A DNA stretch of 64,000 nt from Bacillota bacterium (GTDB taxonomy: Bacteria > Bacillota > Clostridia > Christensenellales > UBA3700): contig JAEWXG010000012.1 in assembly GCA_023396095.1 (NCBI GenBank), positions 97,718 to 161,717 of the forward strand, in the 5' to 3' direction. Below are positions 4,666 through 59,184 of the stretch, piece by piece. The position numbers and the translations under genes are program-made. A model generated the notes under the pieces. It did no database searches. It was not told the origin of the DNA and saw only the letters and a program-made list of their open reading frames with translations. Every line of letters begins with the position of its first letter. Positions within the stretch are counted from its first letter, which is position 1.

Positions 4666-5322
4666 TTATTCTTCACTCTTTTCATCACGACTTAATCGTG
4701 AAAAAAGTTTAAAAAAAATATCTAAGATAATTGATCCAATGGCATTACCAAAGATCATGATAATTATATATAATAGTGATTTTGCATTAAAAAATTTTGC
4801 ATAAATATAATATCCGCAATTAGCTATGCAATGCTCGAAGCCTGATAATATAAAAATTGATACAGCAACATATGAAATAATAGCCTTCATAACTAAGGAA
4901 TCCGTTTTTTGAGGCAATTTAACGGCTAGATATATCATCACACCACACATAATACTCAATATTAAAATTGAATACCACTTGTCACTCTGTTTTACTTCAA
5001 TTAAAGCTTTTGCCTGCTCATAAAGAAATGTTTTTTGCCTTGTTAATCGCATTAAAAAGGGGATAATAATAACTCCTAGGATATTGCCAAACAATCCGAT
5101 TGCCAAATCAACTAAAAACCTCTTGTTATTATCTAATAAAAATCCTACTTGCCCTGTGTATAAAAATAACCGACATATAATAGTCGCGTACAGACCAAAA
5201 CCAAATAACAATGAAGCAACTATTTTATTCATTGGTAAAACAAACAGATACGCAGTTAAACCGATAGATATTAAAATACCTGACAATATGCTTGATGCTA
5301 ATAATTTTACTAAATTCTTCAT
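4666..5322 (-). CDS. formate/nitrite transporter (FNT) family channel, short form
   Basis: 218-aa polytopic membrane ORF. GFEHCIANCG matches the FNT GFEHSIAN motif, and LFLYTGQ and SIMCGVMIYLA resemble the two FNT signature regions. Confidence 0.65.
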   Translation of the reverse strand: MKNLVKLLASSILSGILISIGLTAYLFVLPMNKIVASLLFGFGLYATIICRLFLYTGQVGFLLDNNKRFLVDLAIGLFGNILGVIIIPFLMRLTRQKTFLYEQAKALIEVKQSDKWYSILILSIMCGVMIYLAVKLPQKTDSLVMKAIISYVAVSIFILSGFEHCIANCGYYIYAKFFNAKSLLYIIIMIFGNAIGSIILDIFFKLFSRLSRDEKSEE

Positions 5323-5507
5323 ATGTTCAACTTATTTAAAATATCACACACTCAATTTTATGTCTATAAAACTTGTATAGTTTATTTTTAGGCTTCATCC
5401 TACTCTAATGCAAAATAAGATAATATCTCCACTCGCTAGAAGGGCCTAATTATATATAATTGCCTTCTCTACTCATAAACACTTTAAAAATTATTTTAAG
5501 GATTTAA

Positions 5508-5660
5508 TAATATATATATACTATTATTCATACACCTATAAATACTACTATTTTTATACCTTAAGTATCAAAAACGATGATAATGTCATTAATTATTACT
5601 GTTTTATTATCAAGTAAAAAATAGCCAATGCTTTCGTATCAGCCATTCTTAACTCCAATG
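5508..5660 (+). repeat. left copy of a diverged ~150-bp direct repeat (partner 15590-15747)
   Basis: Conserved blocks are ATACACCTATAAATACTACTATTTTTATACC and AAAAAATAGCCAATGCTTTCGTATCAGCCATTCTTAACTCCAATG versus the tRNA-distal sequence at 15610-15747. Identity is roughly 70% by eye. Confidence 0.7.
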
Positions 5661-5752
5661 TGTAAGGTAAGTTTAAATAATACTGCACCCTGTTTTGACC
5701 GATGCACCCTCTCTTGTATCAAATGCACTTACCTTAGTCCTGTGATGTAATT

Positions 5753-5861
5753 GCATTCAACACAAGAATTTTCTGTATCAAATAAGCTTACTTTTCTCCT
5801 GAAGCCAAACTGTATTCAATACAAGCATTTTGTATCGAATAAGCCTACTCATCTTCTGAAG
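5753..5861 (+). repeat. two tandem ~50-nt units (period 59 nt)
   Basis: GCATTCAACACAAGAATTTTCTGTATCAAATAAGCTTACTTTTCTCCTGAAG (5753-5804) versus GTATTCAATACAAGCATTTTGTATCGAATAAGCCTACTCATCTTCTGAAG (5812-5861). 42 of 50 aligned positions are identical. Confidence 0.8.
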
Positions 5862-5981
5862 AGTAGGTGCCTAAGGGGTTCAACCCTCGGCTGGTTGTGT
5901 GTGGTAAGTCTATTTGATACATGCACCCTCTAAAACTATAAATGCACCCTCAAAACCATTGTTTTCAGCACTTACCCCTAT

Positions 5982-6012
5982 GTGACACGTGACAAACGTG
6001 ACAGTTGTGACA
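5982..6012 (+). repeat. left terminal hexamer array: 4 x GTGACA, start-to-start spacing 7, 9, 9 nt
   Basis: GTGACAcGTGACAaacGTGACAgttGTGACA. It is the mirror image of 15470-15500, matching at 25 of 31 positions when the right copy is reverse-complemented. Confidence 0.85.
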
Positions 6013-6130
6013 CTTAGGTTAGGTAGGTGTAATCAATACAAGAAAAGATTTTCAAAACGTATTTGATACAGCGTCTATTTTTCTCCTCACGTTTATCTTT
6101 TCTCCCCATTATTGTGCATTTTGGTGACAA

Positions 6131-6161
6131 GAAAAAACATCTACCACAATGGATAGATGTC
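6131..6161 (-). terminator. intrinsic terminator of the fic gene
   Basis: On the minus strand ACATCTA-10 nt-TAGATGT is followed by TTTTTT, and it begins 5 nt after the fic stop codon (6166-6168). Confidence 0.65.
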
Positions 6162-6165
6162 ATTT

Positions 6166-7212
6166 TTATTTTGAAATAATGTAATATGTTGCTCTTCCGC
6201 TTCCCATCTTCTTTATTTCTCCAGCATTGCAAAGTTCTTGTAAACTTCTTTCAACGCTTGTAGAACTTAGAGATGGTGCTAGTTCCACAATATCTCGTTT
6301 AGTAAATTTACCAATCTTATTATTTACTGCTTGTCTTACTACTTCAATAGCAGGTTTCTTTTCTTTAACTAATTCTATTCTCTCTTCAAAATCTCTATAT
6401 GCACTTATAATTGTGCTCAATAAATACTTTATAAATGGTGTTGAATCATCCTCATTTTCGTGCCAATTTTTTTGTGAATCATATAATGCATCATAATATA
6501 AATCTTTATTCTTAGCTATCTTAGCTTCTAATGATATATATTTACCAACATAATAACCAGAACGATATAATAAAAGCGTTGTAAGCAATCTAGACATTCT
6601 TCCATTGCCATCAATAAATGGGTGTATACATAAGAAGTCATGAATGAAAATTGGAATTAAAATAAGTGGATCAATCACCCCTTCGCCAATTGCTCTATTA
6701 TATTCATCACATAGATCTTGCATTGCCATTGGTGTTTCAAATGGTGATAAAGGTGTGAACAAAGTATAACTCTTACCACTTTCATCAGTAGCACTAATAT
6801 AGTTTTGAACATTTTTAAATTTACCACCATACGAAGAAGCTGCATGTGATAACAATATTCCATGAAGTTGTAAAATAAAATTAGGTGTTATAGGAATGGA
6901 ATCAAAATTCTCGTGAACTATATTAAGCGCATCTCTATATCCTGCAATTTCTGCTTCTGCTCTATTTTTAGGAGTTGTTTTTTCATTAACTATTTGTCTT
7001 AATCTAGTATTCGTCGTTCTAATACCTTCTATCTCGTTTGAAGATTCAGTACTTTGTATTTTAGCTATTTCAACTAATTTCTCTAATTCTTGAGGTAATT
7101 GTTTTAAATATAACTGTTGTTTTCCTTTTTCTTCATGAATAACAGATAAATAATTAACTATATCAATATCCCATTTAACATCTTTTAATTTGTTATAATC
7201 AAATACCTTCAT
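6166..7212 (-). CDS. fic: Fic family protein (AMPylase-type), class II with an intramolecular inhibitory motif and a C-terminal winged-helix-like region
   Basis: Canonical Fic motif HPFIDGNGRMSRL (HxFx[DE]GNGRxxR). An N-terminal SNEIEG matches the inhibitory [ST]xxxE[GN] motif. RBS GGTGGTGAG. Confidence 0.9.
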   Translation of the reverse strand: MKVFDYNKLKDVKWDIDIVNYLSVIHEEKGKQQLYLKQLPQELEKLVEIAKIQSTESSNEIEGIRTTNTRLRQIVNEKTTPKNRAEAEIAGYRDALNIVHENFDSIPITPNFILQLHGILLSHAASSYGGKFKNVQNYISATDESGKSYTLFTPLSPFETPMAMQDLCDEYNRAIGEGVIDPLILIPIFIHDFLCIHPFIDGNGRMSRLLTTLLLYRSGYYVGKYISLEAKIAKNKDLYYDALYDSQKNWHENEDDSTPFIKYLLSTIISAYRDFEERIELVKEKKPAIEVVRQAVNNKIGKFTKRDIVELAPSLSSTSVERSLQELCNAGEIKKMGSGRATYYIISK

Positions 7213-7241
7213 TTTCTCACCACCATTTCTTTTTTCTCCCC

Positions 7242-7270
7242 AATTATATCACTTTTGGTGCGAAAAATCA
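7242..7270 (-). promoter_or_regulatory. strong promoter candidate for fic
   Basis: Minus strand: TTGATT (7270-7265), 17-nt spacer, TGaTATAAT extended -10 (7250-7242). Confidence 0.6.
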
Positions 7271-7333
7271 ATGTTTTTTAATAAAATATCATCAGAGCTA
7301 GGTAAAAGTGAAGTTAGGGTTTTTGATTTATTC

Positions 7334-8422
7334 TTAAACTTGATTTTCTTTTAATTTTTGTCTATGACGTGCTTGCCTTTTACGATTAATTGTTCTAACG
7401 CAAGCATCATCTCCACAACACTTTTGATTGTTTCCGTTCTTAATAAACATATTTCCACACACTTCACAATATGATATCTTTTCGCCCGAATCATAAGCAC
7501 CATATTTATCAGTATTTGGATCCTCACTTGGTGCATTTGAAGCTAACAATCTAGCAATACTGTAATAACATATATCAAAAATAGATTCTACATACGCTAC
7601 TAATTCACACTTATTTCTTGAAGTATCATAATATAATGATAGTTTTATTTGAGGAATCATATCTTCAATTTTTTTATAAATATTAATTTTATCTGCTACT
7701 ACTGCTTTTCTAAATTCTTCTTTTGTGTTTAGATGCATATGTGCATGTTCAGCATCTTTTGCTGCTCTTTTTATATCATCCCAATTAGGATCAGCATCAT
7801 ATTTATCAACTATCATAATTAATTCATATTCAGCAAAAAACGGAATTGTATGAAAGAATTCTCCACTTTTTGCATAATTCAATGCCGGTTCAGGATTACC
7901 ATTTAAGCATTCTAAAAAAGCATAAACATATGTAAAAACACTATATAGTTTTGCTAAATCATCAATAAATGTATCAACTTGAAAAACACCATCAGTCCAT
8001 TCTTGAAAATATTTTCTATCCTTCTCCCCTTTTTCAAGTTCTCTATATTTTTCATATAAACTCTCTATATTATAAGGATGAAAATATTCTTTGCACCAAT
8101 TCATAATTAAAGAAGCTACTTTAGTATCAGTTATAGGGCCTTTAAAATTTATTTCTTCTGCTAGATTACATAAAGATACTATTAGCTTTTTACCTGTTAA
8201 TCCTAAATCAATATCTAAGTCTGGTGCTTCATATGGATCAAGTGGATATATTATTTTTCCTTTTATTCCTTTATTAACGATATTAGCTTGATCATCATAA
8301 TCATAATCTTTAAATTTTACGCATTTATAAACAATCTCACCTACTCCACCAATATCAACTAAGCCTAGATGCTTATTATTGGCTTTGGGGAAGGTGATTT
8401 TTTTCTTTCTAATATATGCCAT
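7334..8422 (-). CDS. orphan 362-aa protein with a C-terminal CxxC...CC...C zinc-ribbon and basic tail
   Basis: The ORF is open to 8536, but ATG 8422 (MAYIRKKK) has a GGTGA RBS-like element while the 8536 ATG has none. C-terminus: CEVCGNMFIKNGNNQKCCGDDACVRTINRKRQARHRQK. I can name no family with confidence. Confidence 0.6.
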   Translation of the reverse strand: MAYIRKKKITFPKANNKHLGLVDIGGVGEIVYKCVKFKDYDYDDQANIVNKGIKGKIIYPLDPYEAPDLDIDLGLTGKKLIVSLCNLAEEINFKGPITDTKVASLIMNWCKEYFHPYNIESLYEKYRELEKGEKDRKYFQEWTDGVFQVDTFIDDLAKLYSVFTYVYAFLECLNGNPEPALNYAKSGEFFHTIPFFAEYELIMIVDKYDADPNWDDIKRAAKDAEHAHMHLNTKEEFRKAVVADKINIYKKIEDMIPQIKLSLYYDTSRNKCELVAYVESIFDICYYSIARLLASNAPSEDPNTDKYGAYDSGEKISYCEVCGNMFIKNGNNQKCCGDDACVRTINRKRQARHRQKLKENQV

Positions 8423-8439
8423 TTTATCACCATTTTCTT

Positions 8440-8458
8440 TGTCACGTTTTATGTCACG
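8440..8458 (-). promoter_or_regulatory. two CGTGACA boxes directly upstream of the orphan gene start
   Basis: The plus strand reads TGTCACGTTTTATGTCACGTTTT, a 12-nt direct repeat (boxes at 8440-8446 and 8452-8458). This is the same hexamer as the element-end arrays. Confidence 0.5.
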
Positions 8459-8662
8459 TTTTGAGATGTTCTCTTTCGTTACATTATATCGTAAAATGGT
8501 AGCGAAAACAAGAGATTTAACGGATTTTAGTTTCATTTAATTACTAGTCGTTAAAACAAGTTTCACCCAATTAATTGTTTAACGGTTAATAGTTGCTTGA
8601 TTCTAAATTGGGTAAGTCCTTAAATCTCTTGAATTCAAACATTATTAATGGAGGAAAACAAA

Positions 8663-8863
8663 ATGGAAAAACAAACTATTAGTGTTCAAGAACTAGCCAA
8701 ACAACTTGGTATTTCTGTTCCTAAAGCCTATGAATTAACTAGAACTCCTAACTTCCCTTCAATAAGAATTGGGACAAGAATAATAATTCCAATTGAGGAA
8801 TTTAAAAGATGGTTAAAAGAGACTAGTTTAAAAGAAGGTGCTAATGATGAAGATAAGTTATAA
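8663..8863 (+). CDS. excisionase-family helix-turn-helix DNA-binding protein
   Basis: 66 aa from the ATG preceded by GGAGGAAAACAAA. ISVQELAKQLGISVPKAYELTRTPNFPSIRIGTRIIIPIEEFKRWL matches the excisionase/MerR-type HTH pattern. Confidence 0.75.
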   Translation: MEKQTISVQELAKQLGISVPKAYELTRTPNFPSIRIGTRIIIPIEEFKRWLKETSLKEGANDEDKL

Positions 8864-11135
8864 AATCTTTTATTCTAATTGCATCCACCAATATAGCAAT
8901 TGCCTCTATCCTCATGAGATAGATGTTACTGATATTGAATCTTTAAAGAAAGCAGTATCTTTCGATTACGTGTGTGCGAAATATAAGGATAACTATAGGT
9001 CTATCGCAAATTTCACTTCTTCTAATTGTATTGGAGTAGATTTTGATAACGATCATTCTAATAATCCTGAAGATTGGGTTACATCTAATTCAATTAAAGA
9101 AATGTTTAGTGGTGTACCCTATTTAGTTCACTATTCTAAATCACATATGAAACCTAAAATTGGAGCATGTAAAACCGAATATGGCCCTAGACCTAGATTT
9201 CATGTCATTTTCTTAATTGATGAAATAAATAATGCTGATGAATATAAAGCCCTAAAAGATAAATTATTTGATTATTGTCCTTTAATTGATCCAATGGCTA
9301 AAGACTCAGCAAGACTTCTGGCAGGAACACCTAATCCTATAGTTGAATGGCATGATGGAACTATCACATTAAATCAATTTTTAGATGATGTATTTAGTGA
9401 AAAAGCATTTGAAGAATTAGGTGAAGTTATACCTGAAGGAAATCGTAATGCTACGATGCATAAGATTGCTTGTTCTTTACTAGTTAAATATGGAATTACC
9501 GAAGAATCTAAATCTAAATATAGGGAAGCATCAAAAAAATGTAATCCCCCACTAGAAAAGGATGAATTAAATACAATTTGGAAGAGTGCAGCTAAATTCT
9601 ATAAGAATAAAGTTGTTACTAATCCAGAATATAAAAAGCCTGAAGAATATAACAGCCAATCTGTTATAAAGTGGGATACCCCTATTCCATTTGAAAAACC
9701 TAAATTACCTACATTTCCTGTAGATGCATTACCTAAAATTATAAGAGATTATGTTGTTGCGGTAGCTGAAACAACACAAACACCTGTTGATATGGCTGCT
9801 ACTGCTTCACTTGCTATTATGTCTTTATGTATGCAAGGAAGATATAGAGTTGAAGGTAAAGTGGATTGGGATGAACCAGTTAATCTATATACATTAATAA
9901 TTGCCGAACCTAGCGAAAGAAAATCAGCCATTATTGGTTTTATGACAAGACCGGTTAATGAATATGAACTTGAATACAATAGATTAAATGGTGCTAGATT
10001 TGAGTCATCACGTATTCATAAATCAGCGCTTGAAATTAGAAAGAAATCTATTGAGTCTCAATTTGCTAAAGGCAAAGTTACTGATATAGAGGTTGAAGAA
10101 ATATCAAAGAAGCTACATGACTTTAAAGAATTAAAACCTAAGAAGATTTATGTAGATGATATTACAACTGAAAAGCTCGCATCAGTACTTGCTGATTCAG
10201 ACGGTAAAACAGCCGTTATTTCAACAGAAGGTGGTATATTTGATGTTTTAGCTGGTATGTATAACAAAAGCGTTAATATTGACGTTTTCTTAAAGAGTTA
10301 TTCAGGAGATGCAATTAGGATTGATAGAATTGGACGTCAATCAGAACTAATTCAAAAACCAGCATTAACAATACTTCTTTCTGTTCAACCAAGTGTCCTA
10401 TCTTCACTTATTAGTAATACTACATTTGAAGGTAAAGGACTTACTACTAGATTCTTATATGCATTACCAGAATCATTAATTGGTAAAAGAAAATTTAACA
10501 CTTCTCCTATTCCATCTGAAGTATCACGTCTATATGACATGAAAATTAAAGATGTATTAAATGAAGAAGAAAACTTAATTGATAATCAAATCATTAGACA
10601 AAGTAAGGAATCAAAATCTTTATTTCAAGCGTTCCATGATGAAAATGAAAAAATCATGGGTGAAGATACTGAAATAAAAGCATGGCGAGGAAAACTAGTT
10701 GGTAATGTTTTAAGAATAGCTGCACTACTTGCAAGATTTAATATGGATCGATTTAATCCATTCTTTGATGAAACACCTGAAGTTATCGTATCAAAGGATG
10801 ATATGGCTAATGCTATTACAATTGGAAAATATTATATCGAGCATGCGAAAGCTTCATATTCACTTATGGGAATAGATCCTATTAATAAAAAATGTGAATA
10901 TGTATTAAGCAAAATAAAAGAACATAACTTCTATGAATTCGCAAATAGAGATATCACAAGAGCTTGTGGTACTAAAGACTTACGAACTTTAGAAGGAATG
11001 TTACCGGTTTTAAATAGATTAATTGAATATGGATACATCCAGCCTAAAACTGATAAAAAGAATAATACTTCATATTTAACTAATCCAATAATATTTAGTC
11101 AAAACAATAAGGAGGAACAAAATAATGATGACTAG
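8844..11135 (+). CDS. AEP-type primase (PriCT-like middle region) fused to a DUF3987 helicase-like domain
   Basis: IGVDFDNDH and PRFHVIFLI are AEP primase motifs. NATMHKIACSLL...NPPLEKDELNTIWKSAAKFY is PriCT-like. FPVDALPKIIRDYVVAVAETTQTPVDMAATASLAIMS is typical of the DUF3987 N-terminus. The ATG at 8844 follows GGTG; the track start at 8838 is a GTG. Confidence 0.75.
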   Translation: MMKISYKIFYSNCIHQYSNCLYPHEIDVTDIESLKKAVSFDYVCAKYKDNYRSIANFTSSNCIGVDFDNDHSNNPEDWVTSNSIKEMFSGVPYLVHYSKSHMKPKIGACKTEYGPRPRFHVIFLIDEINNADEYKALKDKLFDYCPLIDPMAKDSARLLAGTPNPIVEWHDGTITLNQFLDDVFSEKAFEELGEVIPEGNRNATMHKIACSLLVKYGITEESKSKYREASKKCNPPLEKDELNTIWKSAAKFYKNKVVTNPEYKKPEEYNSQSVIKWDTPIPFEKPKLPTFPVDALPKIIRDYVVAVAETTQTPVDMAATASLAIMSLCMQGRYRVEGKVDWDEPVNLYTLIIAEPSERKSAIIGFMTRPVNEYELEYNRLNGARFESSRIHKSALEIRKKSIESQFAKGKVTDIEVEEISKKLHDFKELKPKKIYVDDITTEKLASVLADSDGKTAVISTEGGIFDVLAGMYNKSVNIDVFLKSYSGDAIRIDRIGRQSELIQKPALTILLSVQPSVLSSLISNTTFEGKGLTTRFLYALPESLIGKRKFNTSPIPSEVSRLYDMKIKDVLNEEENLIDNQIIRQSKESKSLFQAFHDENEKIMGEDTEIKAWRGKLVGNVLRIAALLARFNMDRFNPFFDETPEVIVSKDDMANAITIGKYYIEHAKASYSLMGIDPINKKCEYVLSKIKEHNFYEFANRDITRACGTKDLRTLEGMLPVLNRLIEYGYIQPKTDKKNNTSYLTNPIIFSQNNKEEQNNDD

Positions 11136-11511
11136 AACAGATAAAAATATCGCCTGGGATGTTATTTCAGGTATGTTAGGTAGAAGAATAAAAAGAAATA
11201 GTGATTTTACATTCATGGTTGATGATCACTATAGGCTTGAAATTAATGTGCCATTAAGACAAGACAAGGATGAAGTTATGCTAAATGCAGAATTATATTG
11301 TGATAATGGACCAGCTATATATGTAATTGAAGGTATTCCATCTGATGAAATATGGCAAGTAACTGATGGACTTGATGCCATCATAAATAATCTTAAATCT
11401 AAAATCATAACTGATGCCGATAGAGAATTACAAAAAAACGATGGCTATATGTTTTTAAGTTTTAAAGAATTTCAGTCACATTTGTCACGTGTCACAAACA
11501 TGTACAAATAA
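11125..11511 (+). CDS. hypothetical protein (128 aa)
   Basis: AGGAGG RBS 9 nt upstream and an 11-nt overlap with the primase gene. No recognisable motif. The 3' end encodes an internal GTGACA-type array. Confidence 0.5.
   Translation: MMTRTDKNIAWDVISGMLGRRIKRNSDFTFMVDDHYRLEINVPLRQDKDEVMLNAELYCDNGPAIYVIEGIPSDEIWQVTDGLDAIINNLKSKIITDADRELQKNDGYMFLSFKEFQSHLSRVTNMYK
11474..11495 (-). repeat. internal hexamer array (3 boxes, spacing 9 and 7 nt) in the same orientation as the right element end
   Basis: The plus strand reads AGTCACattTGTCACgTGTCAC; the reverse complement is GTGACAcGTGACAaatGTGACT. Confidence 0.7.
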
Positions 11512-11778
11512 TTATTGATGCCTCTTCCCTCTAGAATATATTTTCTAGGGGGTAGGCCCCATTCTATCTCTGGGACTAAATTATAGGACATCGGCCTGGG
11601 GTTTCACGCGCAACTTCGCGAAATCAAAGAGGGTATATCCCCCTATTCGTTAAAACACTATTTCTGATTTTCAAAGTCCTAAATTTGCCGTTATTTCGCT
11701 ACAATTTGAAATACCTATAATTAGCCGTAGAGGTCTTAATAACTTGAAATAATCGCACATAAGGAGGTTTAACGGGAA

Positions 11779-12162
11779 ATGAACGATAAAGAAAGAAATA
11801 AAGTTATTAAATTAAGAAATCAAGGTGTAATGCCTTCTGAAATATCTAAAATTACTGGAATAAAGATAGAAACAATCAAATCTTATTTCAAACGACATAA
11901 AAATTTATTACCTAAAAGTGCTACTTGTAAATACTGTGGTAAGAAAATAGTTTCTATTAGAGGTAAGAAAAATAAAAAGTTTTGTTCGGATAAGTGCCGC
12001 ATGGCTTATTGGAATTCACATCCTGAGCTTATTAATAAACAAGCTTACTACAAATTAACATGCGAATATTGTGGGAAGGAGTTTTTAAGTTATGGAAATA
12101 AAAGACGTAAATTCTGCTCAAGGGAATGCTACAAGAAGTCTCTTAGAAAAATACAAATCTAA
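11779..12162 (+). CDS. HTH (sigma-70 region-4-like) protein with two FCS-like zinc-ribbon modules
   Basis: AGGAGG RBS. The N-terminus VIKLRNQGVMPSEISKITGIKIETIKSYFKRH looks like an HTH. It is followed by CKYCGKKI...KFCSDKC and CEYCGKEF...KFCSREC. Confidence 0.65.
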   Translation: MNDKERNKVIKLRNQGVMPSEISKITGIKIETIKSYFKRHKNLLPKSATCKYCGKKIVSIRGKKNKKFCSDKCRMAYWNSHPELINKQAYYKLTCEYCGKEFLSYGNKRRKFCSRECYKKSLRKIQI

Positions 12163-12366
12163 TAATCTTATTGTTTATAACATAAGCATAACAATTCTTG
12201 AGGCACTACATAAAAATGGTGTTTTAAATGATGAAGATTTCATAGATTCTTCTTCTTTAGTTGCAGCTAATCATGGGCTTAAAAATACCTCAATTTTCGT
12301 ATCAAATTAACTTGATATAAATCCCCTTTAGAGTGATATATATGTATGACCAAAAGGAGGATTATC

Positions 12367-12570
12367 ATGGATAATTTAAAGCAACAATTATTTAAACTTT
12401 GTGAAGAACACAAAACCAGTACTGAGGGGATTAATTACTTAATCAAATATTATATTAATTCCCTCGGCTGGACTGAGGAGGAAGCCATTAAATATGCAAT
12501 AAAACTATTTGATAATGGCACCATTGATGAAATAAAAATTATAGGAGGTAACGATGGACAGGATAATTAA
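12367..12570 (+). CDS. small hypothetical protein (67 aa)
   Basis: ATG 12367 lies 6 nt after AGGAGG. It overlaps the first recombinase start by 17 nt, which suggests coupling. Confidence 0.45.
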   Translation: MDNLKQQLFKLCEEHKTSTEGINYLIKYYINSLGWTEEEAIKYAIKLFDNGTIDEIKIIGGNDGQDN

Positions 12571-13885
12571 CCAAGTTGAATTTAATAATCAAAATAACAA
12601 TAAAATATTAAGTGTTGCTGCATATGCTCGTGTATCAGTAGATAAAGAAGCTATGCACCATTCACTTGTAGCTCAAATCGATTATTACAAACAATTAATA
12701 GAAAACAATCCTAAATGGAAATTGTATGACATTTATGTTGATGAAGGAATTACAGGTACAACTGAATCGAGAAATTCATTTCAAAAAATGATTGATGATG
12801 CAATAAATGGCAACATTGATTTAATCATTACAAAATCAATTACTAGATTCGCCCGTAATACTGTAACTTTACTTGAAACAGTTAGAAAGCTTAAAGCTAA
12901 TAACATTGAAGTATATTTTGAAGAACAAAACATTCATACCCTATCAAAAGATGGTGAACTTCTTCTAACTATTCTAGCATCGTATGCTCAAGAAGAATCT
13001 AGATCAGTTTCAGAAAATATGAAATGGAGAGTTAAAAAGAATTTTGAAGAAGGCTTATCTTGGGGTACTCATCTATATGGTTACAAATATAAAGATAACA
13101 AATATGAAATCATTCCCGAAGAAGCTAATGTTGTTAAAAAGATATTTGATTTATATCTTGAAGGTAATGGTGTTCAAGCTATTACTAAAGCACTTGAATT
13201 AGAAGGCATAAAAACCAGAAATAATATTCCTTTCTCTAAATCAACAATTAGAGCCATGTTATCAAATGAATACTATACTGGTGATAAGATACTTCAAAAG
13301 ACTTATAGAAAAGATTTTATTTCCAAAAGAACCCTAGCCAACAATGGAGAACTTACTAAATATTACGTTGAAAATTCTCATGAAGGTATTATTTCTAAAG
13401 ATGATTTTAATAAGGTTCAAGAAATGTTAAAAGCCAAAAAAGATAAAATCAATTGGAAAGTCGATAAGCCATTAATATTACCATTTAGTGGAATAATTGA
13501 ATGTGGTTGTTGTGGCAAACATTATTCAAGGAAAACGACTCCATATAAGCATATTTGGCTTTGTAGAACCGTTAATGATAAAGGAATAAATGAATGTAAT
13601 TCTAAACAGGTTCCAGAAGAAATATTATTTGAAACTGCCAACAAAATATTAGGTACTACTTCTTTTGATGAAAAATTATTTATAAAGAAAATAGAAAAGA
13701 TTATTGTTCAAAAAGATAACATCTTAACTTATTCATTTAAAGATGGAACATCAAAAGATATTAAATGGGAAAATAAATCTAGAAGTCTTTCTTGGACTCC
13801 TGAAAAGAAAGCTAAAGCACGCCAAAGAACATTAGAACAACATAAACAAAGGAGGGATACGAATGGCGAAAGTAACAGTAATTAA
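12554..13885 (+). CDS. large serine recombinase 1 (443 aa)
   Basis: Resolvase catalytic domain AAYARVSVD...TKSITRFARN...AQEESRS, a recombinase domain, and the zinc ribbon CGCCGKHYSRK...WLCR. GGAGG RBS. Confidence 0.9.
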   Translation: MDRIINQVEFNNQNNNKILSVAAYARVSVDKEAMHHSLVAQIDYYKQLIENNPKWKLYDIYVDEGITGTTESRNSFQKMIDDAINGNIDLIITKSITRFARNTVTLLETVRKLKANNIEVYFEEQNIHTLSKDGELLLTILASYAQEESRSVSENMKWRVKKNFEEGLSWGTHLYGYKYKDNKYEIIPEEANVVKKIFDLYLEGNGVQAITKALELEGIKTRNNIPFSKSTIRAMLSNEYYTGDKILQKTYRKDFISKRTLANNGELTKYYVENSHEGIISKDDFNKVQEMLKAKKDKINWKVDKPLILPFSGIIECGCCGKHYSRKTTPYKHIWLCRTVNDKGINECNSKQVPEEILFETANKILGTTSFDEKLFIKKIEKIIVQKDNILTYSFKDGTSKDIKWENKSRSLSWTPEKKAKARQRTLEQHKQRRDTNGESNSN

Positions 13886-15437
13886 GCCTACAATTAATCC
13901 ACATACTCATATTTCAATTAATGCACCACATAAAAGACGTGTAGCTGCATATGCTAGAGTTTCAACAGATCAAGATGAACAATTCACTTCATATGAAGCT
14001 CAAATTGATTATTATACTAAATATATAAAAGCTAATGATGAATGGGAATTTGTAAAAGTATATACTGATGAAGGTATTAGTGGTACATCTACAAAAAGAC
14101 GTGATGGATTTAAACAAATGATTGATGATGCTTTGTCAGGCAAAATCGATTTAATTGTTACTAAATCAATATCTCGTTTTGCAAGAAACACTGTTGATGC
14201 ATTAGTTAATATTAGAAATTTAAAAGATAAAGGTGTTGAAGTGTTTTTTGAAAAAGAAAACATTTATACCTTCGGTACTGGTGGAGAGCTTCTTCTTACC
14301 ATCATGTCATCAATTGCACAGGAAGAATCTAGATCTATATCAGAAAATGTTACTTGGGGTAAAAGAAAAGCATTTCAAGATGGAAAAGTAGCTCTTCCCT
14401 ATAAATGCTTTTTAGGTTATAAAAAAGGTGAAAATGGTCTACCTGAAATTGAACCTAATGGTGCAGAACTTGTAAGAAGGATTTATAGGATGTTTATTGA
14501 AGGTAAAAGCCAATCAACAATTGCTAGAATCCTAACTGAAGAAAAGATACCTACTCCAGGAGGCAAAACAAAATGGCAATATAATGTCATCGATTCTATT
14601 TTAAGAAATGAAAAATATAAAGGTTCTGCACTTCTTCAAAAGAAATATACAGTAGATTTTCTAACTAAAAAACTTAAAAAGAATAATGGTGAAGTAGCAC
14701 AATATTATGTTGAAGATTCTCATCCAGCAATTATAGAACCTGATGAATGGGAACTAGTACAAGCTGAACTTGAATTAAGAGATGAAACTCAAATAAGGAA
14801 CCGAAGAGATAATGTATTATCTGGTAGAGTCATATGTGCTGATTGTGGTTCTATTTATGGACCTAAAGTATGGCATTCAAATGATGCATATAGACATGTC
14901 GTATGGCAATGCAATAATAAGTTTAACGGCACTAAATGCACTACTCCTACTCTTGATGAAGAAACAATTAGAAATGCTTATTTAAAGGCATTAAACATTC
15001 TTTTAAAAGATAAAGATAAACTCATTTCTAATCTCCTTCTTGTTAAAGAAAAACTACTAGATGTTAATCTATCTAAGCCTATTGAAAAAGCCAAGAATGA
15101 AATGCTAGTAGTTAGTGGTTTATGTGACCAACATGTTTTTAACAAAGAAAAGAAATTAAAGAACAGCCAAGAATACATGGATGAATATATTGAACTAGTA
15201 AAAAGATTCACTGCAGCACAAGATGAATATGGAAGATTAATTGATGAACAAGTAACTCGTAATAGAAAGTCAGTTAAACTACAAGCCTTCATTGATGAGA
15301 TTAAAAATGCAGATGCACTTAATCTAGAATTTAATGATAGACTCTTCAATTTAACTGTTTTAAATATTAAAGTACATAAAGAAAACCATCTCGAATTCAA
15401 TTTCAAAGATGGCTCCATAATTAATATTGATTTATAG
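13863..15437 (+). CDS. large serine recombinase 2 (524 aa) with a long K/E/L-rich (coiled-coil-like) C-terminal region
   Basis: AAYARVSTD...TKSISRFARN...AQEESRS, then CADCGSIYGPK...WQCNNKFNGTKC. It is a paralogue of recombinase 1 and overlaps it by 23 nt. AGGAGG RBS. Confidence 0.9.
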   Translation: MAKVTVIKPTINPHTHISINAPHKRRVAAYARVSTDQDEQFTSYEAQIDYYTKYIKANDEWEFVKVYTDEGISGTSTKRRDGFKQMIDDALSGKIDLIVTKSISRFARNTVDALVNIRNLKDKGVEVFFEKENIYTFGTGGELLLTIMSSIAQEESRSISENVTWGKRKAFQDGKVALPYKCFLGYKKGENGLPEIEPNGAELVRRIYRMFIEGKSQSTIARILTEEKIPTPGGKTKWQYNVIDSILRNEKYKGSALLQKKYTVDFLTKKLKKNNGEVAQYYVEDSHPAIIEPDEWELVQAELELRDETQIRNRRDNVLSGRVICADCGSIYGPKVWHSNDAYRHVVWQCNNKFNGTKCTTPTLDEETIRNAYLKALNILLKDKDKLISNLLLVKEKLLDVNLSKPIEKAKNEMLVVSGLCDQHVFNKEKKLKNSQEYMDEYIELVKRFTAAQDEYGRLIDEQVTRNRKSVKLQAFIDEIKNADALNLEFNDRLFNLTVLNIKVHKENHLEFNFKDGSIINIDL

Positions 15438-15465
15438 AACTCTAGTTTTGGTGGCTAGAGTTTTT
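15438..15465 (+). terminator. intrinsic terminator after recombinase 2
   Basis: AACTCTAG (15438-15445) pairs with CTAGAGTT (15455-15462) and runs into TTTTT. It starts immediately after the TAG stop. Confidence 0.65.
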
Positions 15466-15469
15466 AATT

Positions 15470-15500
15470 TGTCTCGTTTGTCACGCGTGTCACGTGTCAC
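15470..15500 (-). repeat. right terminal hexamer array (mirror of 5982-6012)
   Basis: The plus strand reads TGTCTCgttTGTCACgcgTGTCACgTGTCAC; the reverse complement is GTGACAcGTGACAcgcGTGACAaacGAGACA. Confidence 0.85.
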
Positions 15501-15589
15501 GTAGGGGTATATGTAAAAATTGATATTTACTCCTATAAGTATTCTTATATATAGTAAGTAGTAGTTTAACGAATAATAATAATTTAACG

Positions 15590-15747
15590 ATATAATTATA
15601 TATATTACTATCTATATACCTATAACTACTACTATTTTTATACCTAAGGCAACAATAATTATCATAATTGCTATAAATATTGCAGTTTTACCCATATATA
15701 AAGAAAAAAATAGCCGATATTTTCGTATCAGCTATACTTAACTCTAA
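15590..15747 (+). repeat. right copy of the diverged direct repeat; contains the tRNA-Leu terminator
   Basis: See 5508-5660. The minus-strand hairpin AUAGCUGAUA-CGAAAA-UAUCGGCUAU followed by a U-run lies just 3' of the tRNA. Confidence 0.7.
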
Positions 15748-15831
15748 TGGTGCGACCAAAGGGACTTGAACCCTTATGTTATTCAACATACGCTCCTCAA
15801 ACGTACGCGTCTGCCATTCCGCCATGGTCGC
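15748..15831 (-). tRNA. tRNA-Leu (anticodon GAG), class II with long variable arm, CCA encoded
   Basis: Hand fold of GCGACCA-TG-GCG-GAATGGCAGA-CGC-G-TACGT-TTGAGGA-GCGTA-TGTTGAATAACAT-AAGGG-TTCAAGT-CCCTT-TGGTCGC-ACCA. All stems pair, with one G-U pair. Confidence 0.9.
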
Positions 15832-16575
15832 TTAAATAGTTAATAATACAGGGCAGTGATCACTCCCCTGCAAATCATTTAAAATTTCTATTTTTTTAAC
15901 ACGTTCCACATCTTGATTATTAATTAAAAAATAATCAATTCTCCAACCTACATTCCTTTCACGTGCTTTAAATTTATAAGACCACCAAGTATATTTTTTT
16001 ATTGCATCAGGAAAAAAATGTCTGAAAATATCAGTAAAGCCAGACTTTAATATTTGAGAAAAAGACTCTCTTTCTTCAAAACTATACCCAGCACTTCCTT
16101 CATTACTTTTTGGATTTTCTAAATCAATCGGTTTATGAGCAACATTTAAATCTCCACAGAGAATTACTGTTTTATTAAATTTGTTCATATAATTTTTTAA
16201 AGCGAGATCATAACTTAATCTATACTCAATACGTTTTAATTCTGGCTGCGCATTAGGCGTATAACTATTAATCAAAACAAAATCATCATATTCTACTACA
16301 ATTGTTCGCCCTTCAATATCAAATAGTTCATTTCCTAAGCCTGTATTTATTTGATTAGGTTTTATCTTAGAATAAACAACTGTTCCAGAATATCCTTTCT
16401 TTTGTGCGTTATTGAAATATGCATAATATCCTTCTAGTTGATATTCATTTTCAATTGAGGACAATTTGGTTTCCTGCAAACAAATAATATCAGGATCTAT
16501 TTTTTTAATCTCTTCTTTAAAATCCTTTTTTAATATGGCTCTTAACCCATTTACATTCCAAGTTAATATTTTCAT
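15832..16575 (-). CDS. xth: exodeoxyribonuclease III
   Basis: 247 aa: MKILTWNVNGLRA...CLQETK...GDLNVAH...WRIDYF...GSDHCPV. These are typical ExoIII/AP-endonuclease motifs. Confidence 0.9.
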   Translation of the reverse strand: MKILTWNVNGLRAILKKDFKEEIKKIDPDIICLQETKLSSIENEYQLEGYYAYFNNAQKKGYSGTVVYSKIKPNQINTGLGNELFDIEGRTIVVEYDDFVLINSYTPNAQPELKRIEYRLSYDLALKNYMNKFNKTVILCGDLNVAHKPIDLENPKSNEGSAGYSFEERESFSQILKSGFTDIFRHFFPDAIKKYTWWSYKFKARERNVGWRIDYFLINNQDVERVKKIEILNDLQGSDHCPVLLTI

Positions 16576-18084
16576 TTATCCGTTTGCCTTTAAAAATCTC
16601 GAAAATTCTACTTCTATCTTATTATACATGATGTCAAAATTTTCTTCATTACTATTTATAGTTAAATTTGAAATCTCATCATAAAAATTTTTTCTTTTTT
16701 TTAATAAATCATCATAAGAATGATATTGTAAAATCTGATGATTTTTCGATACTTCTACATTGGACTCTAAATTCACTACAAATGAATTTTGGGAAATTAT
16801 TTCTCTATTCCTATTATTTTCAACAATCCCTCCACCAGTTGCAATAACGGCTCCTTTTTTTAAGCGTATTATATTTTCTAAAACAAAATTTTCTAAATTT
16901 CTAAAAAATGACTCACCAAGATTAGTAAATATATCAACAACAGACATCGACATAATTTTCTCAATAATTTCATCTATATCATAAAATTCTTTTGACATTT
17001 TTTCAGCTAACTTCTTCCCTATCGTTGTTTTTCCAGCCCCAGGCATACCTATAAGTGTAATATTCAATATTTGTTTACCAACTAATTCATAGACACCTTC
17101 CATATCTACAAGTATCGAATCCACGCCTTGAAAAATTTTCTCGCTCTCAACTCCTTGAACAAATAACATATAAAGTCCATTAATGGCCTTTAACCCGCAT
17201 TTTTTGGCTTGAATTAATAATTTAGAATAAAATGGAAAATAATTTAGATCAAGAACCCCATCATTAATATGTAAATACTTTAAATCAATTAATGCATAGT
17301 CATGTAAAACATTACCCACAGGAGTTGCGTTAATAACATATGAAAACTCAAAATCTCTAAGTTTATCTTGATAATTGGAATAATTTATTTCGCTAGAACG
17401 TCCAATAGTCAAAACGCAACTTGCTTTCATTTTCAACAAAACCTTTTTTACCATTTGACTAGTTGCGCCTGTCCCTAAAATGAGAAAAGCTCTATCTTCA
17501 ACAATCACATTATTCTTTCTCAATGTGGCCATAAATCCTTGTACGTCAGTATTATAGCCTTTAAATTTACTACCCTTTTTAATAATAGTATTCACGGAAC
17601 CAATCTCTTGGCCCACAGAATCTACGATGTCCAACCTTGATAAAATCTGTTTTTTAAATGGATTTGTAATATTCGCGCCTTTGAATTTTTCTGTAGTAAT
17701 ATATTTAATAATATCGTCGATATTTTTACATTGTACATGCCTATATTTTTTATTGTTTGCATACATATGTATATCTTTTGAAATTGAATAAAATAAATTT
17801 TCACCAAATAAAGCATATTCAACTTCGCCTTTACTTATAGCACTCTGTAGCTTTTTTGATTGGCTAAAAATTTCTTTATATATGTTTTTAATGCTTTCAG
17901 AATATTTGGAATTGTTAATGCTCTCATTATTTAATATTATATTTTCACGGGCAAGATCATAAATTGGCATATTGTTTTTCATTTTCTCTTTTGCAATAAT
18001 ACCAGATACTTCCATTCTTTTATTTAATAAATCAATAATTTCTTTATCTAAAATATCTATCTTCTCTCGCTCTTTTTCTAGCAT
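16576..18084 (-). CDS. trifunctional fusion: AroQ-type chorismate mutase / shikimate dehydrogenase (AroE) / shikimate kinase (AroK)
   Basis: N-terminus IDILDKEIIDLLNKRMEVSGIIAKEK (CM type II). Middle GANITNPFK...GSVNTI...GYNTDVQGF...ILGTGATS (AroE). C-terminus LIGMPGAGKTTIGKKLA...ATGGG (AroK). Confidence 0.8.
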   Translation of the reverse strand: MLEKEREKIDILDKEIIDLLNKRMEVSGIIAKEKMKNNMPIYDLARENIILNNESINNSKYSESIKNIYKEIFSQSKKLQSAISKGEVEYALFGENLFYSISKDIHMYANNKKYRHVQCKNIDDIIKYITTEKFKGANITNPFKKQILSRLDIVDSVGQEIGSVNTIIKKGSKFKGYNTDVQGFMATLRKNNVIVEDRAFLILGTGATSQMVKKVLLKMKASCVLTIGRSSEINYSNYQDKLRDFEFSYVINATPVGNVLHDYALIDLKYLHINDGVLDLNYFPFYSKLLIQAKKCGLKAINGLYMLFVQGVESEKIFQGVDSILVDMEGVYELVGKQILNITLIGMPGAGKTTIGKKLAEKMSKEFYDIDEIIEKIMSMSVVDIFTNLGESFFRNLENFVLENIIRLKKGAVIATGGGIVENNRNREIISQNSFVVNLESNVEVSKNHQILQYHSYDDLLKKRKNFYDEISNLTINSNEENFDIMYNKIEVEFSRFLKANG

Positions 18085-19136
18085 AATTTCTCCATTATCG
18101 CCAAAGCAACTGCTGATTCAATCAAAACTACAACTCTTGGGACAATGCAAACATCATTTCTACCATCAATCTTCCCAGTAGCTATTTTTTTCTGCCCATC
18201 CTCAAAAATTTCCAACAAACTAACATTTTGCTTAATAGCAGAAACAGGTTTTACGGCTACTTTAATAAGAATTGGCATCCCATTAGAAACACCTCCATTA
18301 ATTCCACCGTTATAATTATTTTTTAAAACAACTTTTTCTCCATCTAACGCAAAATCATCGATAACCTCACTTCCATAAGAATTTACAAAATCTATACCTT
18401 GCCCAAACTCAATACTTTTTACGCCAGGAATGGCAAAAATATATTTAGAAATAGTTCCTTCTAACGAATGAATATTCGGGCCCCCTAATCCAGCTGGGAC
18501 ATTGGTCGCAATACACTCAATACTACCTCCCACCGTGTCACCGTTCATCTGCGCTATCTTCATTTCTTTAATGAACTTTTCTTTATCATCACGTGAAACA
18601 ATAAAATTTTTATTAGAAATATCTATGCTCTCAATATTAAAGTTGTTTTGCTTGTAAGAAATTCCTTCTATTTTCCCTACGCTAGAAATGTAAGCCAACA
18701 TGTTGACTTTATATTTTTCTTCGAGATATTGATAGCATAGCCCACCTGCAATAGCCAATAAAACTGTCATCCTACCAGAAAATTCACCGCCACCAGGATG
18801 AATGCATCCATATTTTAAAAATGAAACATAATCAGCATGTCCAGGTCGACAAATATTAATGTTCTCATCTCTTTTAATATCTTGATTAATGACAAAAAAT
18901 TCTATTTCTTGAGCAATTATTTGTACTTTATCACCATCAATATTTTTTAATCCTACCCCAATATTTATCTCGTCGTTCTCGCGTCTTGTAGTCGACCATA
19001 CATCTAAAGTCGCTTTTCTTCTATCTATATATTGTTGCAAAATTGATAGACTAAAAATATATCCTTTTGGGAACCCTTCAATAATCACTGATATTTTGTT
19101 ATCTCTAGACTTCCCACTAAATCTAATACTTAACAT
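18078..19136 (-). CDS. aroC: chorismate synthase (divergent N-terminal signature)
   Basis: RPGHADY, GGEFSGRMT, GDTVGG, GGINGGVSNGMPI and GRNDVCIVPR are present. The N-terminus has GKSRD where GESHG is expected. Confidence 0.85.
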   Translation of the reverse strand: MLSIRFSGKSRDNKISVIIEGFPKGYIFSLSILQQYIDRRKATLDVWSTTRRENDEINIGVGLKNIDGDKVQIIAQEIEFFVINQDIKRDENINICRPGHADYVSFLKYGCIHPGGGEFSGRMTVLLAIAGGLCYQYLEEKYKVNMLAYISSVGKIEGISYKQNNFNIESIDISNKNFIVSRDDKEKFIKEMKIAQMNGDTVGGSIECIATNVPAGLGGPNIHSLEGTISKYIFAIPGVKSIEFGQGIDFVNSYGSEVIDDFALDGEKVVLKNNYNGGINGGVSNGMPILIKVAVKPVSAIKQNVSLLEIFEDGQKKIATGKIDGRNDVCIVPRVVVLIESAVALAIMEKLC

Positions 19137-19138
19137 TA

Positions 19139-20401
19139 TTACTCTACTCTCAATTTAAAATAATCATTCCAATAATCATTATATGACTTTTTAACACATT
19201 CAGGCTTTAATATTTTAATTTGGCTTTTGTTAACTAAAGCCATTATTGAATATGCCATAGCCATTCTATGATCTTGACCTTGGTATGTTAATGGTGTATC
19301 AATTACATCCTTTCCATAAATTACAAGCTTATCGCTTCGGACTTCTACATGAACAGATAGATTAATTAATAGCGATATTATACTTTCTTTTCTATCACTC
19401 TCTTTAAACTTAATTCGATCTATACTTTTTAAAATATTTTTTCCTTCGCTTAACGACATCAAAACAACCAATATAGGCCCTAAATCAGGATAATCTTCAA
19501 TATCAACCTCAACTGCATTTAGTTTTTCTTTTTTTACCTCAATATATTCATCAGTAATTTTCACAAAAGCGCCTGCATCTTGCAGTATTTTTAAGATTTG
19601 TGCATCTGCCTGTGGATAAATAAAATCTAAGCCATGAACTCTGATCTCCCCCGCAATGGCTGCCGCAACAAAAAATGGCGCCGCAGAAGACCAATCTCCA
19701 GTTGAAACAAAAACACTTTTATTTGGTACTTTAACTTTTTTTGCAAAAACAATATTATCTTCAAAAATTATTTCATATCCAAAATCTTTCATTATATTGC
19801 AAGTCATCTCAATATATTGTTTAGATACCAATTTATTTGTAATTTTTATTTTCTTTTTTGAATCTATGCATATTGCAAAAATTAATCCTGACACATATTG
19901 ACTGGATAAACTTGGATCTATTTCTAAAACTTTAGCTGAAATTTTACCACCACAATAAATTATATTTTTGTTTATTTCTATACTAGCGCCTGCCATATTC
20001 AAGGCTTCAACTAACGGTCCGATCGGCCTATCTATTAATGATTGTTCACAAACTATTTGTGCTTTCATTCCAGTCATTGCAATTATCGGCAAAATAAAAC
20101 GTAGTGTCGTCCCACTTTCATTAACATGAATTTCAACCTCTTTATCTTTTAAAATTTTGAGGTTCTTAATTGGCTGTATTTTTAATTCATTCTTATTTCT
20201 CTCAATTTTTACGCCTACCCCTTCTAAAAAATTGATGGTTGCCAAAATATCATCACAAATGTGTTCGCTTAATAATTTGATTGTTATATTGTCTTTTGCA
20301 AAAAATCCCCCTGCAATCAACATTCTATGCAAAAAAGATTTTGAATCAGGAATGTACACATCCCCTTTAATATTCGACTTACTTATTGTTAAAGTTTCCA
20401 T
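19139..20401 (-). CDS. aroA: 3-phosphoshikimate 1-carboxyvinyltransferase (EPSP synthase)
   Basis: Start set at ATG 20401 (METLTISKS), which follows a GGAG RBS. Contains SKSFLHRMLI, ESGTTLRF, DHRMAMA. It overlaps the aroB 3' end by 23 nt. Confidence 0.9.
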   Translation of the reverse strand: METLTISKSNIKGDVYIPDSKSFLHRMLIAGGFFAKDNITIKLLSEHICDDILATINFLEGVGVKIERNKNELKIQPIKNLKILKDKEVEIHVNESGTTLRFILPIIAMTGMKAQIVCEQSLIDRPIGPLVEALNMAGASIEINKNIIYCGGKISAKVLEIDPSLSSQYVSGLIFAICIDSKKKIKITNKLVSKQYIEMTCNIMKDFGYEIIFEDNIVFAKKVKVPNKSVFVSTGDWSSAAPFFVAAAIAGEIRVHGLDFIYPQADAQILKILQDAGAFVKITDEYIEVKKEKLNAVEVDIEDYPDLGPILVVLMSLSEGKNILKSIDRIKFKESDRKESIISLLINLSVHVEVRSDKLVIYGKDVIDTPLTYQGQDHRMAMAYSIMALVNKSQIKILKPECVKKSYNDYWNDYFKLRVE

Positions 20402-57653: not shown

Positions 57654-57693
57654 AATTGCCTCCCAAATCAATACAACACGTTATATATAAAAC

Positions 57694-57702
57694 ATTATAA
57701 CA
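57694..57702 (-). promoter_or_regulatory. extended -10 element upstream of the 1,723-aa gene
   Basis: The minus strand reads TGTTATAAT, 41 nt upstream of the ATG. There is no good -35. Confidence 0.4.
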
Positions 57703-58806: not shown

Positions 58807-58854
58807 TCACCATATATAATATTATTATCCATCTTTTCGTTATTAAATTCCAAA

Positions 58855-59182: not shown

Positions 59183-59184
59183 AT

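Follow-up and report, generated by a model that had tools for sequence, protein, structure and literature searches.

A 10.1-kb island with two large serine recombinase genes at the CCA end of a tRNA-Leu(GAG) gene, flanked by an apparent relic of an earlier occupant

A tRNA-Leu(GAG) gene of a Bacillota bacterium (assembly GCA_023396095.1, contig JAEWXG010000012.1) adjoins a 10,089-bp island that carries two large serine recombinase (LSR) genes and is framed by a diverged direct repeat. In the window, i.e. the whole 64,000-nt stretch of DNA analysed here (contig positions 97,718 to 161,717), the island occupies 5661..15749, from a left-end half-site that we call P' to a right-end module, P_R, that abuts the tRNA. 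The tRNA gene is intact, lies on the minus strand at 15748-15831 and encodes its CCA (ARAGORN, Rfam). No tRNA sequence is duplicated at the island ends, and an Rfam scan of 5000-16500 found no RNA family besides this tRNA; the scan rules out a T-arm-like stretch at ~5868-5885 as a tRNA fragment.

The repeat was detected by blastn as a pairing of 5492-5660 with 15580-15749 (75.9% identity, 174 columns, E 6e-31), and MAFFT gives the two flanks 75% column identity. When set against the family references described below, the left copy is 5484-5660 and the right copy 15572-15749 (76-79% identity); global alignment of the last 177 nt of both copies gives 79%. No third copy was found by blastn in the window, where the next-best match has E > 1e-4, so the repeat is neither dispersed nor AT-rich noise. 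A preliminary description of this DNA, made from the letters alone, had put the repeat at about 150 bp and 70% identity; the repeat is real, and slightly longer and better conserved than that. Similarity ends with AATG in both copies. The left break had been placed exactly, at 5660/5661, but on the right, where similarity was said to stop as the CCA begins, it extends 2 nt into the CCA: the TG at 15748-15749, complement of the last two bases of the tRNA, corresponds to the TG at 5659-5660. The terminator hairpin noticed earlier within the repeat folds in both copies, as a hairpin with a U-run on the tRNA-sense strand (-19.7 and -15.9 kcal/mol, z = -4.9 each).

Next to the right copy lie the recombinase genes, LSR1 (12554..13885, + strand, 443 aa) and LSR2 (13863..15437, + strand, 524 aa). 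Both encode the Resolvase, Recombinase and Zn_ribbon_recom domains (PF00239, PF07508 and PF13408) and keep the catalytic serine, in the sequence YARVS. The two are paralogues with 44% identity. Neither is a Ccr orthologue: LSR1 and LSR2 reach 153 and 119 bits with the NCBIfam CcrB model (cutoff 900), and 70 and 56 bits with CcrA (cutoff 700). Alignment of the DNA after LSR2 among relatives defines the complete module P_R (15438..15749, + strand), which comprises, in order, the LSR2 terminator (15436-15464), an array of GTCAC repeats (15470-15509), a nearly invariant 50-nt block (15541-15592), a variable stretch, the tRNA terminator (15710-15735, minus strand), the P half-site GTATCAGCTATACTTAACTCTAA (15725-15747) and the TG at 15748-15749.

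This stretch of ~290 bp, from LSR2 to ...CTTAACTCTAATG, is conserved among relatives at different targets. LSR2 homologues that are 81-93% identical lie on contigs (loci are designated here by L numbers) with the same core genes and different left-hand cargo, and their P modules neighbour transfer-messenger RNA (tmRNA) genes (L001, L002) or tRNA-Thr (L003), as the window's neighbours tRNA-Leu. A 25-nt degenerate pattern taken from the module end and run on one-genome-per-species bacterial collections yielded 47 stretches, in most of which the pattern shares exactly 2 nt with a tRNA or tmRNA gene, at its 3' end. The genomes bearing them are mostly Anaeroplasma, Acholeplasmatales, Erysipelotrichaceae and unclassified gut or rumen Bacilli assemblies; among them is the isolate A. 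bactoclasticum ATCC 27112. When metagenomes were scanned with the primase, 20 further loci with the same behaviour came to light. Across about 60 loci the P module adjoins 20 tRNA anticodon types plus tmRNA (at least 21 genes), always at the last gene of the tRNA operon, and the modules at these genes are 72-90% identical across many genera. Other tRNAs in the same loci have unrelated, ordinary terminators without GTATCA at -23, and hence the module is not a host feature. On this comparison the right copy is the island's own conserved, terminator-bearing end, standing in for the native tRNA terminator. The preliminary description had offered an element that carries its own version of the region downstream of the tRNA, with its terminator, and replaces the native one; this holds for the right copy, but not in the sense of a mimic of host sequence, given the same module at at least 21 tRNA and tmRNA genes.

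The breadth of targets is matched by near identity of the enzymes. LSR2 proteins that are 97-100% identical are found at Thr-CGT, Leu-CAA, Leu-TAG, Gly-GCC, Glu-CTC, Ser-CGA and Tyr-GTA; those of L054, L061 and L068, at Gly-GCC, Ser-CGA and Leu-CAA respectively, are about 100% identical. Such proteins at different tRNAs demonstrate past mobility, and their occurrence at seven tRNAs amounts to multi-target insertion, not as diverged enzymes each with a site of its own.

The left copy, P_L (5484..5660, + strand), would be the truncated right end of an earlier family member, with positions ~119-294 of the 294-bp module preserved. It keeps the tRNA-sense terminator hairpin and a complete P half-site, GTATCAGCCATTCTTAACTCCAA (5636-5658), and at the left junction ...CTCCAATG is followed directly by TGTAAGGTAAGTTTAAATAATAC, the P' half-site (5661..5683, + strand). 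P_L shares 84% identity with the P modules of L005, L046 and L066. Its identity to P_R, 79%, is close to the median of 78.5% between the modules of unrelated elements, which argues that P_L and P_R arose independently. Truncated P modules of 45-292 bp, with C-terminal LSR2 fragments or no LSR, are common beside other tRNAs, and also occur in the isolate Anaeroplasma bactoclasticum ATCC 27112. At about a dozen loci the P module is followed by P' rather than by a tRNA; P' there has TTGATAC at +17 to +23 and then element-specific short repeats. The window's layout of P_L-P'...P_R-tRNA recurs in L011, L031 and L041. In L046 the core genes through LSR2 and the P module lead directly into the P' of a second element, and L005 has a P-TG-P' junction on a 2.2-kb contig that could be a circle or part of a tandem array. 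We conclude from these comparisons that the left copy is most plausibly the relic of an earlier, related occupant, joined to P' at the presumed TG crossover. The preliminary description had reasoned that a serine integrase cannot create a direct repeat of ~150 bp, and had proposed either a carried terminator region or a relic of an earlier occupant; each of these explanations fits one of the copies, the relic fitting the left one.

The junctions share a simple geometry. Read toward the junction, the arm consensus is GTATCAGCTATACTTAACTCTAA for P, GTAT.A... for the reverse complement of P' and GGTTCGA.TCC....CaC for the reverse complement of the tRNA arm. P' is thus an inverted partner of the P arm, with its distal motif GTAT.A at -23, and position profiles show G..TCR at -23 to -18 to be common to the P, P' and tRNA arms, which in the tRNA is the T-loop. 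The P-TG-P' site spans 48 bp and is an imperfect dyad, with 13 of 23 positions matching in the window junction and 15 of 23 in the attP reconstructed from P_R and P'; the background mean is 6.55, and 0.56% of window positions reach at least 13 matches. No dinucleotide other than TG is both common to all attP-like junctions and certain to be present at a naive tRNA end, and the dyad is centered on it; on these grounds we infer strand exchange at the TG, which in the left junction P_L/P' would be 5659..5660, where the homology breakpoint and the dyad center coincide.

A course of events can be proposed. In the circular form, attP would consist of the P arm from the island's right end, the central TG and the P' arm from its left end, and recombination would occur at the TG whose complement is the final CA of a tRNA or tmRNA CCA. 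With the crossover there, the gene would stay intact and no piece of it would be duplicated. The tRNA-Leu gene would serve as the B' half of the attachment site; insertion would sever it from its own terminator, and the P module would supply the replacement. A single recombinase might use many tRNAs because the half-site that they offer has the universal CCA at its center and the T-loop GGTTCGA at -23 to -17, where P and P' carry GTATCA; recognition of CCA plus T-loop is a likely explanation of the broad target range. At the window's locus, an earlier member would have occupied tRNA-Leu and lost its body by ordinary deletion, leaving the tRNA-proximal 177 bp (terminator and P arm), which may have been retained because it was by then the terminator of the tRNA. 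The present island would have recombined with P_old-TG-tRNA, so that P_old-TG-P' came to lie at the left junction and P_new-TG-tRNA at the right one. After excision the island probably replicates, given its phage-type primase-helicase and iteron-like repeats. Our favored reading, to which we give a probability of roughly 0.78, is that 5661-15749 is an apparently intact integrative island of 10.1 kb moved by LSRs, belonging to a family widespread in gut and rumen Mollicutes-like Bacilli, and that the left repeat is a relic. A broader proposition seems to us evenly poised: that this LSR clade reads generic tRNA features (CCA, and the T-loop ~20 bp away), inserts at almost any operon-terminal tRNA or tmRNA gene and replaces its terminator, and that the P-arm relics left behind become landing pads, building cassette-like arrays of defense islands.

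Several observations weigh against the favored reading. The crossover is placed by homology breakpoints and symmetry alone, and GTATCA, which recurs in the left-end repeats, might instead be bound by a replication protein. Neither a circular junction nor an emptied site was seen for the window's island in assembled sequence. To our knowledge, canonical large serine integrases such as those of phiC31 and Bxb1 do not recombine attP with an attR-like site. Insertion beside a resident P arm would therefore need looser site rules, perhaps through the use of two paralogous enzymes, and members with a single LSR (L002, 10001-11551; L060, 5957-7492) blur the roles of the two. No close host relative was found in the collections searched, in which the nearest homologue of the neighboring host gene xth is 56% identical. 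Finally, all eight left junctions found via the P' motif carry a P-type arm, canonical or diverged, and none among the visible left junctions adjoins plainly native DNA, so that P-bearing sites may be required targets rather than occasional relics. The loci centered on LSR2 or the primase (L001-L004, L053-L072) do not extend as far as a recognizable left end, since their BREX and type I restriction-modification cargo exceeds the 10-kb flank.

The last of these points can be taken further, to a family in which the left P arm is required: only sites composed of a P arm, TG and a T-loop-like arm would recombine, islands would stack, and naive tRNA ends would rarely be colonized. Those eight junctions were found independently of the P pattern, and each has the hairpin with GTATCA at -23, canonical or diverged; the P, P' and tRNA arms share the distal motif at the same spacing, unlike the asymmetry of classical attP and attB; and tandem arrays and mini-elements exist (L006, L031, L041, L046). 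The sample is small, however, and its loci were chosen for containing the P module. The family has reached at least 21 tRNA and tmRNA genes, which requires that naive ends can be used at least now and then, and some of the diverged left arms, at a mere ~45 nt, might be native pseudo-sites. We regard such a requirement as possible, though doubtful; it would alter how the relic is used and not what the window's left repeat is.

Arrays of GTCAC/GTGAC occur three times in the island, at 5973-6012, 11475-11496 and 15470-15509. The left array (5973..6012, + strand, with GTGAC repeats) and the right one form a 40-nt inverted pair, 83% complementary; on the circle they would lie to either side of attP, some 240 and 310 bp away. 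All relatives keep the internal and right arrays. The arrays may bind a regulator or an accessory recombination factor. They could also be taken for the ends of a smaller mobile unit (5973-15509), with 5661-5972 and 15510-15749 as older residents, because the inverted repeat is the longest in the region and resembles transposon ends. We consider this very unlikely and have rejected it: a conserved third copy inside the element suits a protein-binding array better than ends, the sequence from the right array to the tRNA travels with the element to each new tRNA, and the cargo of relatives inserts between LSR2 and the array, inside the element.

Two further origins of the left repeat are less probable still. 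That it is the host's original tRNA-Leu downstream region, captured or mimicked by the island, would suit its position, where a displaced native terminator would be, and its fold, still that of a terminator; yet modules 72-90% identical to one another lie beside at least 21 tRNA and tmRNA genes of many genera, the copy is nearer to modules elsewhere (84%) than to its counterpart on the right (79%), the terminators of unoccupied host tRNAs are unrelated to it, and it is a truncation of a longer module that in intact elements is contiguous with LSR2. A local duplication by slippage or unequal crossing-over, followed by divergence, has nothing specific in its favor beyond the fact that direct repeats can arise so, and is hardly compatible with a left copy that ends exactly at the P/P' TG (as in L005, L006, L031 and L046), with a divergence of 21% that equals that between independent elements, or with P_L and P_R both being closest to L005 and L066 and not sisters.

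The rest of the island, as listed in the preliminary description, is mobile-element-type content, and all of its reading frames are intact, including those of both recombinases; by this measure its genes look functional. The left end is non-coding over 5661-6165 and rich in repeats, and 5685..5950 (+ strand) is a putative replication origin. It contains four copies of GCACCCT (5685, 5704, 5923 and 5944) and ~58-nt tandem units beginning TGTATCAAAT at 5715-5831; relatives bear repeats at the same place, with a sequence that differs for each element. The cargo slot holds a Fic-domain gene (6166..7212, minus strand; Pfam Fic E 7.7e-18) with a terminator at 6136-6161. Its product matches the PADLOC SoFic model over essentially its full length (E 2.5e-45, model positions 18-351 of 361) and has the catalytic motif HxFx(D/E)GNGR as HPFIDGNGR, identifying it by homology as a defense gene of the SoFic anti-phage type in what appears to be a variable slot; the slot in relatives contains BREX, type I restriction-modification, a methyltransferase or a phospholipase D (PLD) nuclease. 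Next comes a conserved 400-aa protein with a C-terminal Cys4 zinc ribbon (7334..8536, minus strand), divergently oriented from the helix-turn-helix (HTH)-primase operon. Searches of Pfam, NCBIfam and PADLOC assigned it to no family. Its C-terminal ~40 residues weakly match a PHROG that has no assigned function (E 1.1e-4), and it has only 12 homologues. Its AlphaFold (AF2) model is of moderate confidence (pLDDT 65.6) and gave no fold match, the best Foldseek hit in the PDB having E 0.39.

The operon on the + strand starts with an HTH_17/excisionase-family DNA-binding protein identified by domain searches (8648..8863), followed by a 765-aa primase-helicase (8838..11135) with an N-terminal primase region, PriCT-1 and DUF3987 (E 8.8e-90) and with matches to PHROG helicase and primase families. 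Downstream are a conserved 128-aa protein of unassigned function (11125..11511, + strand), whose gene contains the internal GTCAC array at its 3' end, a 127-aa protein with an N-terminal HTH and zinc fingers (11779..12162, + strand; phrog_2308), and a 74-aa protein (12346..12570, + strand) that overlaps the start of LSR1 and is kept in all relatives; that the last could be a directionality factor is only a guess.

The preliminary description had found no capsid, terminase or conjugation genes and had seen a small island of replicative, satellite or mobilizable type. Domain searches of the island proteins likewise found no capsid, terminase, relaxase, coupling-protein or secretion genes; a novel relaxase is conceivable in the 400-aa protein, for which there is no fold match. 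The type proposed fits the primase-helicase with phage relatives, the iteron-like repeats and the excisionase-like HTH protein. The replication module expected of satellites is present, with the PriCT_1 and DUF3987 protein, the HTH_17/excisionase-family protein and the repeats at 5685-5950 as presumed origin; the packaging or capsid-remodelling genes also expected of them (terS, capsid) are absent from the window island. Like phage-inducible chromosomal islands (PICIs) and P4 satellites, it is about 10 kb long, has a putative regulator divergent from an operon of excisionase-like HTH and primase-helicase genes, encodes a replication protein with phage relatives and no structural proteins, and carries defense cargo. 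It differs from them in an integrase that is at the opposite end and is of the serine rather than the tyrosine type, and in the missing packaging genes. The layout thus resembles that of a phage satellite, a likeness that stops short of class membership.

The primase-helicase is 48% identical to a gut phage protein, and its N-terminal primase domain is 44% identical to that of an Anaeroplasmataceae phage, NatCom_34063 (locus L073, PV036447.1). This phage is a Heliusvirales-type genome of 63 kb with a small open reading frame and two LSRs, 52% identical to LSR2, at its end (57492-63197). We found no relative of the primase in IMG/VR and no DNA match to the P module in GenBank phages. From these similarities the phage is a possible helper, or a possible source of island modules; the Heliusvirales paper behind related phage records makes no mention of tRNA integration. 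A second relative, L074 (1-7960; LSR ~54% identical), encodes a DUF927 primase-helicase, a small terminase (Terminase_4), Phage_capsid, a SHOCT protein and two LSRs. It is inserted in a host with a higher G+C content, at the CCA end of a tRNA-Leu(CAG) gene, and repeats the hairpin-GTATCA-N17-TG arrangement there. It resembles a phage satellite that encodes a capsid and integrates with the same geometry.

The closest precedent is formed by the ssrA islands of Dehalococcoides (McMurdie et al. 2011, PMC3146451), with a CcrB-like recombinase, DsiB, and a small one of 200 aa, DsiA, which insert in the tmRNA T-loop with a 20-bp repeat. They share with the window family a large and a second serine recombinase, the 3' part of a tRNA-like gene as target, a conserved integration module with variable cargo, tandem arrays, module-less remnants and the lack of conjugation genes (PMC3146451). 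They have the single target ssrA, of which 20 bp are duplicated, and no reported primase-helicase (PMC3146451); in the window family the crossover would be at the terminal CA of the CCA, with no duplication of the gene, the repeat is an element end, and there are at least 21 targets. The window's island accordingly lacks the T-loop insertion and 20-bp gene repeat of the Dehalococcoides type, its junction being at the terminal CA and its repeat element-derived. The staphylococcal cassette chromosome (SCC; SCCmec, with CcrA and CcrB) has likewise two adjacent LSRs, of about 440 and 520-540 aa, inserts at the very 3' terminus of a conserved gene and leaves that gene functional, and has variable cargo, a helicase-primase replication module, tandem or composite arrays and relic att sites. 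It differs in its target, rlmH (orfX) instead of tRNA and tmRNA ends, and in a DUF927 helicase versus the island's DUF3987; the island, with no Ccr orthologues and with integration at tRNA-Leu(GAG) and not rlmH, falls outside SCC.

Tycheposons of Prochlorococcus, of whose recombinases 910/937 are tyrosine recombinases and 27/937 LSRs (Hackl et al., bioRxiv 10.1101/2020.12.28.424599), are also modular islands at tRNA and tmRNA genes, with an integrase, a primase/helicase module, swappable cargo, tandem junctions, decaying remnants and some satellite-like relatives with capsid or terS (compare L074). They have partial tRNA copies and cyanobacterial hosts, whereas the window family uses serine recombinases and leaves no tRNA fragment. 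The tyrosine-integrase tRNA islands of the Islander type (Williams 2002; Hudson et al. 2015, PMC4383910) are similar in their association with a tRNA that stays functional and in their tandem arrays; they differ in that crossover occurs inside the gene and an island-supplied replacement 3' fragment forms the flanking repeat. None of the nine proteins of the window's island is a tyrosine recombinase, and its left repeat stops at the CCA and contains no tRNA sequence.

The classic landing sites of tyrosine integrases are tRNA genes. The window family would be a counter-example to the rule that serine integrases spare them. Serine-family integrases were not known to target tRNA genes according to PMC4383910, and the word tRNA is absent from the LSR survey by Durrant et al. 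Our literature search, of incomplete coverage and hence no proof of absence, found no description of a multi-target LSR family at tRNA ends. The repeat itself is ordinary, as the relic of a previous occupant. What is out of the ordinary is a family that targets the CCA ends of many different tRNA and tmRNA genes, with a terminator of its own. Island finders that seek a duplicated tRNA fragment would miss such islands. The combination of CCA and a T-loop-like motif at fixed spacing is a candidate recognition rule and a model for how LSRs read half-sites. Serine integrases are favored for insertion of large DNA, and if the rule is true, these would be a different kind of tool, with a target present many times in each CCA-encoding genome. 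The family also appears to be a main vehicle for defense systems (SoFic, BREX, restriction-modification) among poorly studied and mostly uncultured Mollicutes-like bacteria of gut and rumen.

Some peculiarities of the locus and family are also recorded. (i) The genes flanking the tRNA (15832-22431) form a complete-looking shikimate pathway at 30% G+C. The host lineage is poorly sampled: no exact-protein record was found for the host xth or the formate/nitrite transporter, the genome-collection scan with xth returned nothing, and among 5.8 billion proteins nothing besides its own copy exceeds 57% identity to xth. (ii) The single LSR of L002 and L060 is LSR1-like over its first ~10 residues and LSR2-like over the rest (81% identical to the window's LSR2), as though recombination between the paralogues had removed LSR1. 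The family right end is present at both loci and in L002 adjoins tmRNA; the L060 contig ends before the junction. (iii) The 50-nt block at 15541-15592, TATATATAGTAAGTAGTAGTTTAACGATTAATAATAATTTAACGATTTAAT, holds two TTTAACGAT direct repeats. Nearly invariant in L001-L005 and about 15 other loci, it lies between the GTCAC array and the variable stretch and is more conserved than the neighboring coding DNA. (iv) At L011 (7029 onward) and L012 (713 onward) the P arm adjoins an apparent partial tRNA, limited to a 3' portion with acceptor and T arm, that ARAGORN does not call; these may be fragments from other islands, reused as targets. (v) Mini-elements of 0.8-1.6 kb (L041, 5250-6875; L040, 5708-6525; L010) consist solely of a P' end, a P module and, in some cases, a Fic gene of SoFic type that shares 83-84% identity with the one in the window. 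They encode no recombinase, and might either have arisen by decay or be non-autonomous cassettes that are mobilized in trans. (vi) In L053, L058, L065, L067 and L072, inserts of 1-3 kb between the LSR2 terminator and the GTCAC array split the right-end module, and their shared position suggests a second cargo slot in the family.

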